Of a stretch of DNA of 64,000 nucleotides, positions 30,616 through 31,012 are shown piece by piece. The notes below the pieces were generated by a model, which was not told the DNA's origin, did no database searches, and saw nothing but the letters and a program-made list of their open reading frames with translations. Position numbers and translations under genes: made by a program. The DNA comes from Escherichia phage KM01, in sequence record PV018827; one strand, written 5' to 3'. Numbering within the stretch: the first letter of the stretch is position 1; each line of letters begins with the position of its first letter.

Positions 30616-30646
30616 AAAAGAAAAGGCCACCCATTTGGGTAGCCTC
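30616..30646 (-). terminator. rho-independent terminator after the basic-protein gene
   Basis: GGCTACCC-aaat-GGGTGGCC hairpin followed by TTTTCTTTT on the minus strand. Confidence 0.5.
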
Positions 30647-30649
30647 ATA

Positions 30650-30967
30650 TTACGATGAGCTTAAAGCTCCTTTGCGTGCTCCAGCCGCTTTTCCAGCTCG
30701 ATCACCACTTTTGCCGCCGTTTGAACGGTTTGAGCTGACTGATTCAACACGTAAGTTGCTTGACGCATTAGAGCCTCCAGACTTGACAGCTCGTTTGTGT
30801 CCAACATCTTTACCTCTGACAGCAGCTTTTCCATCGCGCTTTTCAACGATGCGACGTGCACGGTGGCGCTGAGCATCTCCGCTCTTGCTCCCAACGCCTG
30901 TTTCACCACGGGCAATTGCGGTACGTCTTTCTTGTGCATAATCTCTCTTTCCTACATGGTCTGCCAT
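30650..30967 (-). CDS. highly basic Gly/Lys/Arg/Ser-rich small protein (KGG-repeat stress-protein-like)
   Basis: 105 aa; strong RBS TAAGGAG 7 nt before ATG; own upstream TAATGTATA motif and downstream terminator; locally GC-rich. Confidence 0.45.
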   Translation of the reverse strand: MADHVGKRDYAQERRTAIARGETGVGSKSGDAQRHRARRIVEKRDGKAAVRGKDVGHKRAVKSGGSNASSNLRVESVSSNRSNGGKSGDRAGKAAGARKGALSSS

Positions 30968-31003
30968 TTAGAACTCCTTAATATATCAGTGTACACTAAG
31001 GAG

Positions 31004-31012
31004 TATACATTA
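31004..31012 (-). promoter_or_regulatory. TAATGTATA promoter-like motif upstream of basic-protein gene
   Basis: Minus-strand TAATGTATAC about 35 nt upstream of ATG 30967. Confidence 0.4.

Follow-up and report, generated by a model that had tools for sequence, protein, structure and literature searches.

The minus-strand cassette at positions 30616–31012 of the window, which is the whole 64,000-nucleotide stretch of Escherichia phage KM01 DNA (PV018827) analysed here, appears to be gene 58 of a phiEco32-like phage, with its own P58 promoter and terminator and a cysteine-free HNH-like product encoded in the 105-codon frame. We give this reading a probability of about 0.8. The window belongs to a Kuravirus (phiEco32-type phage). 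The 1.1 kb around the gene are 99.9% identical to Escherichia phage EK5 and 91.5% identical to phiEco32, and the 98 related phage records for this region come, every one, from E. coli or Shigella. The protein shares 100% amino-acid identity with phiEco32 gp58 (phi32_58, YP_001671803), which is annotated as a hypothetical protein. The cassette is real but largely known, being a phiEco32-like gene 58 with a published promoter. New with respect to the records and papers examined are four points: that the protein falls into a zinc-free HNH subfamily which has lost a metal ligand, that statistics and proteomics lead us to reject the alternative frame, that a hairpin over the ribosome-binding site (RBS) is predicted to insulate translation, and that a 44-nt stretch is frozen.

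Very few middle genes are shared by the phiEco32-like, 7-11-like and LUZ24-like podophages, and this gene is one of them; the phages concerned are now used for E. coli and Pseudomonas therapy. It is better conserved than the DNA polymerase and has one of only six reported gp36 promoters, yet its product is still labelled "hypothetical". The HNH placement, with a metal site that is probably disabled in Kuraviruses, provides a testable handle on a replication step. A T4-like translational insulation of the sigma-gp36 transcript is predicted, and the short nucleotide-level element may mark a replication, recombination or regulatory site.

Reading frame and a second constraint in gene 58

The gp58 coding sequence (30650–30967, minus strand; phrog_4590) starts with the ATG at 30967 and ends with the TAA at 30650. 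The predicted product has 105 aa, a mass of 10.9 kDa and a pI of 11.5, and is composed of 15% G, 14% A, 14% R, 13% S and 9.5% K. The original prediction had described a self-contained promoter–RBS–ORF–terminator unit for a highly basic small protein in a locally GC-rich stretch, and all of these elements are found on the minus strand. The GC content of the locus is 0.46–0.525 versus 0.34–0.43 in its flanks. As the excess sits in codon positions 1 and 2 (0.62/0.59 in gene 58 versus 0.54/0.41 genome-wide), the local rise is attributable to amino-acid composition. A foreign origin as its source is ruled out by the GC3, which in the main frame (0.33) matches that of the long ORFs of the phage (0.36).

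The overlapping frame that had been proposed as an alternative is present as described, at 30661–30939 on the minus strand, with 92 codons in the +1 frame; we judge it to be a non-coding by-product and the 105-aa frame to be the real reading frame. The main frame matches phrog_4590 with an E value of 7.7e-41, and its homologues number 200 in a 90%-clustered database and form 298 clusters at 50% identity. Tblastn locates the 105-aa frame in 253 phage records, with phages of Pseudomonas (LUZ24-like), Aeromonas, Proteus, Salmonella, Cronobacter and Vibrio among them, whereas the 92-aa frame is found in 98 records only, all of them DNA-similar. Within these DNA-similar records the 92-aa frame falls to 67% identity where the main frame retains 87%. 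Pairwise dN/dS lies at 0.08–0.24 in the main frame; in the +1 and in the +2 frame it exceeds 1. An overlap-aware estimate gave a dNN/dSN of 0.16 (CI 0.09–0.26) for the main frame and a dNN/dNS of 0.73 (CI 0.40–1.52) for the +1 frame, the latter not significant. The comparison of codon usage and GC3, which had been suggested as a check, also favours the main frame, as the GC3 of the +1 frame (0.645) is unlike that of the genome.

Published proteomic data fit the same frame. For SU10 CDS56 (10.8 kDa), mass spectrometry gave two peptides that cover 18.3% of the sequence; SU10_056 is the main-frame protein of 104 aa and 10.83 kDa. A coverage of 18.3% equals 19 of 104 residues, which the main-frame tryptic peptides SGGSNASSNLR and VESVSSNR, for example, would fit exactly; diagnostic peptides of the +1 frame would be, for example, AEMLSATVHVASLK and TLDTNELSSLEALMR. 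The SU10 search covered annotated CDSs only, hence it could return main-frame but no +1-frame peptides. The original prediction held that the coding frame needs experimental confirmation, a question that the homologues, the dN/dS values and the SU10 mass spectrometry largely answer without new experiments. On this combined evidence, we take the 105-aa frame as the coding frame.

The composition of gp58 best accounts for the openness of the 92-codon frame, and a second gene is unnecessary to explain the data. A stop in the +1 frame requires a T at codon position 2, which occurs in 12% of gp58 codons versus 26% genome-wide, so that an open +1 frame is expected because hydrophobic codons are scarce in gp58. 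When synonymous codons were shuffled within the gene, an open run at least as long as the observed one appeared in 22% of trials (P 0.22), and when the protein was recoded with genome codon usage, in 7.8% (P 0.078). Across ten enteric-phage lineages, 16 stops were observed in the +1 frame against 17.4 expected (Fisher combined P 0.12), and a hand tally of the lineage table over the whole family gave about 80 against about 82. Several relatives interrupt the frame with 4–7 stops. In LUZ24 the +1 frame is likewise open and annotated as gp26 ("contains transmembrane domain"), while the conserved 103-aa HNH-like frame (L004 3468–3783) is unannotated; in phage Ka1 both overlapping frames are annotated (L005 2971–3283). 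The +1 peptides of LUZ24 and the Kuravirus have nothing in common beyond the similarity forced by the main frame. We regard LUZ24 gp26 as a frame mis-annotation, which is corrected here.

Gene 58 also contains a stretch in which synonymous change is suppressed. An invariant run of 44 nt (30843–30886, minus strand) is shared by 17 distinct E. coli Gordonclarkvirinae sequences and forms the centre of the trough. Among these sequences the mean pairwise synonymous difference is 0.53–0.61 in codons 6–30, 0.04–0.09 in codons 26–50 and 0.24–0.34 later on; in the 44-nt run, synonymous diversity is about 10-fold below that of the rest of the gene. Within codons 25–55 the value goes down to 0.037, and none of 752 twenty-codon windows in pol and phoH of the same 13 genomes, 95 of which have an invariant protein, lies below 0.12. 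The central 75 nt are at least 93% identical in all 98 records, and the first 75 nt are 80–90% identical in 38 records. In sister clades and Pseudomonas phages, the frozen codons are free to vary. The existence of some nucleotide-level constraint in gene 58 within the E. coli Gordonclarkvirinae is well supported, and it lies outside what our best explanation of the locus as gene 58 covers. RNA structure gave no signal in the frozen 75 nt (z −0.22 sense, +0.5 antisense), Rfam returned one sub-threshold chance match only over 30300–31300, and no tRNA or tmRNA was found. No second copy able to drive concerted evolution exists in the window or in 5,426 E. coli genomes.

One candidate for this second message is dual coding, in which the 92-aa +1 ORF would also be translated and its core, ARAEMLSATVHVASLKS, would freeze the synonymous sites of gp58 in the clade. 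In this overlap the third codon position of gp58 falls on the second of the +1 frame, so that constraint on the +1 peptide would hold down synonymous change, and a conserved core of that peptide would yield the pattern of the trough. The +1 ORF appears intact in 98 of 98 related phage records and in 10 enteric-phage lineages, and a purine-rich stretch precedes its ATG. Against it stand the chance expectation of openness, the stop counts and the dNN/dNS given above, a GC3 foreign to the genome and a lack of homologues beyond DNA-similar phages. Moreover, the +1 peptide changes radically right beside the frozen core and is of different character in LUZ24. We consider a translated +1 protein with a frozen core unlikely. 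Because the peptide changes so abruptly outside the frozen stretch, a short cis element, or gene conversion recurring around the cut site of a homing endonuclease, seems no less likely as the cause of the trough, and a cis-acting DNA or RNA element of about 45–75 nt centred on 30843–30886, where the coding sequence is most conserved, is ranked as more likely than the +1 protein. The synonymous trough leaves a residual doubt in favour of an overlapping gene.

Expression signals of the cassette

The promoter-type motif noticed in the original prediction is the exact element TAATGTATA at 31004–31012 (minus strand), which corresponds to the known promoter P58 of the middle class, read with the phage sigma gp36. 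In papers on these phages, tAATGTAtA is described as a single-element promoter read by E. coli RNA polymerase with the phage sigma gp36 (PMC8948821; PMC4281155; PMC12276001), and transcription is described as starting 6–8 bp downstream of the motif (PMC8948821; PMC4281155). P58 is reported to be among six gp36-sigma promoters detected by experiment, and the motif that precedes phiEco32 gene 58 is reported to agree with promoters so detected (PMC4331800). The SU10 paper gives an identical promoter sequence as the middle promoter between CDS56 and CDS57. In the window, TAATGTATA occurs in five copies versus 0.61 expected, and none of 100 shuffles reaches five. The other four exact copies, at 13558–13566 (plus), 24280–24288 (minus), 24352–24360 (plus) and 63505–63513 (minus), presumably are the remaining gp36-dependent promoters; those at 24280 and 24352 form a divergent pair.

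With the exact motif at the gene-58 position, the published 6–8 bp rule predicts a transcription start at 30996–30998 (minus strand). The RBS, AAGGAG at 30974–30979 (minus strand), is read from the sequence 6 nt 5' of the ATG, and it is strong, as had been stated. The leader also contains an inverted repeat at 30973–31004 (minus strand), with 13-nt arms at 30992–31004 and 30973–30985 that form a 13-bp stem with a 6-nt loop. In this hairpin the anti-SD CUCCUU (30998–31003) pairs with the SD AAGGAG. An RNA that reads through from upstream is predicted to form the hairpin with −17.9 kcal/mol (z −3.7), and 1 of 200 shuffles folds as well. With a start at 30998 or 30996 the RNA is missing the 5' arm, and its SD is unpaired in the folding prediction. 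Since P58 transcripts are predicted to start within that arm of the hairpin, read-through RNA would be translated poorly and P58 RNA well. If the start obeys the 6–8 bp rule, only P58 transcripts should be efficiently translated; both the start and the translation effect are deduced from sequence and folding. A perfect 10-bp palindrome, AGTGTACACT, lies at 30988–30997 (minus strand), where P58 transcription is predicted to start. Relatives retain it, NJ01 with a single mismatch, and it could be a protein-binding site.

The dedicated terminator of the original prediction is likewise present, as an intrinsic terminator at 30613–30646 (minus strand) whose hairpin begins three bases past the stop codon. 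The hairpin (30623–30646) reads GAGGCTACCC-AAAT-GGGTGGCCTT and is followed by a T tract, TTCTTTT; its 10-bp stem includes 6 G-C pairs and the whole has a stability of about −18 kcal/mol. The terminator stands directly 3' of gene 58 in 13 of 17 distinct relatives, which also keep the motif at −45/−41 and the entire leader. Its loop is variable (AAAT, AATA, ATTTC, ATTT, GTTT), with the stem kept. The remaining relatives carry an extra gene that abuts gene 58 precisely on its 5' or 3' side, within the promoter–terminator unit, usually a canonical HNH homing endonuclease gene and otherwise a 97-aa gene (L051 3821–4315; L053 3784–4278; L048 3131–3511; L003 1352–1645; L056 3798–4091). The gene 58 locus is an insertion hot spot.

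In the mechanism that we propose, host RNA polymerase with gp36 would initiate at P58 in the middle phase, a few bases past TAATGTATA. The resulting transcript would carry a strong, free RBS, direct the synthesis of the 105-aa product and mostly be terminated just after the stop codon. Longer RNAs from upstream would carry CUCCUU and mask the RBS in the 13-bp hairpin, and gp58 would then be made mainly from P58 transcripts. The downstream replication genes may depend on read-through past the gene-58 terminator.

The gp58 family and its place in the replication module

The cysteine-free gp58 appears to be a minimal HNH-fold protein to which a conserved helical block at the N terminus and a flexible, basic tail are added. 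The N-terminal block (residues 8–39; 30851–30946, minus strand), defined by the invariant columns of a 58-sequence alignment, reads RDYxQERxTAIxRGETGVGSKSGDAxRHRARR, with R8, E13, R20-G-E-T23, G26, S29, D31, R34-H35 and A37-R38 invariant. The HNH (beta-beta-alpha-metal) core follows at residues 53–82 (30722–30811, minus strand) and contains the invariant residues H57, G64, N71 and N80. The family consensus of this region, VDHKxPLKxGGSNxxSNLRVRSxxxNxS, is an HNH signature with Asn as the last ligand. The Gly/Lys/Arg/Ser-rich C-terminal tail (residues 83–105; 30653–30721, minus strand) is modelled at low confidence (pLDDT 57–60), and its residues G84-G85, G88 and K93 are conserved, being invariant in the alignment.

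Profile searches agree with this assignment at the level of the family. Eighteen family members were compared with Pfam, of which 11 matched HNH (best E 5e-4), 6 HNH_3 (best E 7.5e-5) and 2 HNH_4, all weakly; 5 of the 18 weakly matched the NCBIfam model of the IscB HNH domain. The window protein itself had no Pfam match at E≤1, HNH profiles included, and neither a profile search against PDB sequences nor the PADLOC defence models gave a match. The AlphaFold2 model has a mean pLDDT of 72, and of about 80 over residues 30–80, with helices at 10–20 and 30–45, strands at 53–57 and 72–76 and a helix at 77–82. Two antiparallel strands are thus followed by a helix, the catalytic His (H57) ends strand 1, and a structural Asn (N71) and a metal-binding Asn on the helix (N80) are in place. 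Structure matches in BFVD carry the name "HNHc domain" proteins. The acidic or His metal ligand that precedes the catalytic His (DH, EH or HH) is absent from the window protein, which has G56 instead of Asp (VGHK). In the family, by a regex count that is partly mis-anchored at this position, Asp is commonest, His occurs sometimes, and Gly is found only in E. coli Gordonclarkvirinae. Cysteine is absent from the window protein and from 117 of 120 homologues, which leaves no structural zinc; the zinc-finger HNH (CxxC...CxxC) subfamily is ruled out by the lack of Cys ligands. We therefore assign gp58, on alignment and model evidence, to a zinc-free HNH (beta-beta-alpha-metal) family. Gly in place of Asp makes catalysis doubtful in the window phage, though purifying selection persists. 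Four metagenomic proteins (P0202, P0228, P0236 and P0265; 252–786 aa) carry a gp58-like domain at the C terminus; their N-terminal parts gave no Pfam or PHROG match, and their genomic context was uninformative.

The position of the gene is conserved along with its sequence. In phiEco32, phi32_58 has the PhoH-like gene on one side and, on the other, a run of small genes extending to a DNA polymerase "lacking exonuclease domains". In every relative examined, gene 58 or its homologue is found a few small genes upstream of the exonuclease-less family A polymerase. The Kuravirus order is PhoH, gp58, polymerase; LUZ24 and a related 46-kb metagenomic contig show the order primase-helicase, exonuclease, gp58 homologue, polymerase, the exonuclease of the contig being an unannotated 185-aa ORF. 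In Vp_R1 the homologue follows PhoH, and metagenomic contigs show a like pattern. Identity between phages is 58–61% for gp58 versus 41–48% for the polymerase and 30% for PhoH, and according to the SU10 paper the gp58 orthologue is one of the few middle genes that every C3-morphotype phage has. All this suggests that gp58 is a conserved component of the DNA-replication module with the profile of a core replication or recombination factor. A terminase-associated HNH protein of the HK97 gp74 type was considered and set aside, as gp58 lies instead between PhoH and DNA polymerase in a block of middle genes.

The neighbourhood shows some further features. Just downstream in the window, at 30041–30325 and 30327–30581 (minus strand), the homologues of phiEco32 genes 56/57 are tandem paralogues that both match phrog_6814, with 30% mutual identity; the "autotransporter adhesin" label that they bear in some records looks spurious. 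The stretch between PhoH and P58 (31022–31388, minus strand) holds one gene in phiEco32 (phi32_59, 333 nt), a pair of small genes, overlapping or adjacent, in phages Paul and WFI101126, and two ORFs (82 aa and 61 aa) with a 68-nt overlap in the window. The window DNA polymerase gene is intact (27594–29438, 614 aa), and that of SU7 (L049 4759–7210) and Bas89 (L053 4986–7258) is split or interrupted by an HNH or other endonuclease gene.

As gp58 is syntenic and more conserved than the polymerase, a role on DNA in replication is likelier than selfish homing. We conclude that gp58 acts on DNA: binding is the most likely activity, and nicking or cutting during phage replication or recombination is a possible one. 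The Asp-containing relatives probably do nick or cut DNA, and the Kuravirus form, with its Asp-to-Gly change, may bind without cutting.

Three other readings of the protein were weighed. The original prediction likened the product to KGG-repeat stress proteins or a nucleic-acid-coating protein. The protein is indeed very basic and Gly/Lys/Arg-rich with a tail of low model confidence, and its orthologue is abundant enough to be detected by mass spectrometry in lysate. However, none of the 18 family members matches Pfam KGG at E≤1, and the fold points to HNH nucleases instead. Nucleic-acid binding, the other half of that proposal, stays plausible, whereas a purely disordered coat is contradicted by residues 8–82, which are highly conserved and predicted to be folded; either a KGG-type or a purely disordered protein is hardly credible. 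A free-standing, selfish homing endonuclease gene, acquired horizontally as an autonomous promoter–terminator cassette, would account for the HNH fold, the gene's own promoter and terminator, the locally raised GC and the canonical homing-endonuclease genes that often directly adjoin it in relatives. We find this very improbable, since gene 58 is present at the identical position in 98 of 98 related records instead of sporadically and is syntenic across distant phage groups. It is also better conserved than the polymerase, with a dN/dS of about 0.2, a GC3 at the genome value and a metal-ligand Asp that has been lost in the clade.

The third reading, to which we assign a slightly better though still low chance, has the gp58 family as the site-specific nickases behind the single-strand interruptions of LUZ24-like phages such as tf, and likewise in Kuraviruses. 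Phage tf has nicks at TACT/RTGMC with no nickase assigned, and an IMG/VR contig (L020) and all Bruynogheviruses examined have a homologue with the full D-H-N-N motif. The small HNH proteins Gme and GVE2, which are the closest folds, are nickases. The window speaks against an extension to Kuraviruses, as the tf nick motif occurs twice versus 1.8 expected, strand-biased over-represented 8–10-mers were not found, and G56 argues against catalysis. The literature searched held no report of nicks in phiEco32-like phages. A link between gp58 and the site-specific nicks of LUZ24-like phages is possible, and the motif counts in the window give it no support.

Comparison with known systems

The closest known system is phrog_4590 itself, as phiEco32 gp58 and SU10 gp56 share with the window the position, the P58 promoter and the terminator, with no substantive difference. 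For the expression signals, the precedent is phage T4, in which genes e, soc and I-TevI have a late or middle promoter placed within an RBS-sequestering hairpin. As in these genes, the 5' arm of the gene-58 hairpin lies upstream of the start of the internal promoter, and the RBS would be exposed only on promoter-proximal transcripts. Unlike in T4, the promoter is read by the gp36 sigma and not by gp55 or MotA, and the arrangement here is a predicted one.

At the protein level, gp58 resembles the small stand-alone HNH nucleases Gme HNH (4H9D), GVE2 HNH (5H0O) and McrA HNH (6GHC) in its beta-beta-alpha-metal core and its size of about 100 aa. It shares with them the His ending strand 1, the Asn before strand 2 and the Asn/His on the helix. 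It differs from them in lacking the CxxC zinc site, in the additional RDY...RGETG...RHRARR block and the Gly/Lys tail, and in the Asp-to-Gly change before the catalytic His in the clade. The window protein also falls below Pfam thresholds, and its gene lies in a replication module and not beside terminase or restriction genes. With the HNH homing endonucleases found next to it in EK010, Bas86 and Bas89, gp58 has in common the HNH superfamily, the small size and the use of neighbouring expression signals. Those enzymes have 125–165 aa and Cys motifs, score above Pfam thresholds and occur sporadically, whereas gp58 is universal, syntenic and slow-evolving.
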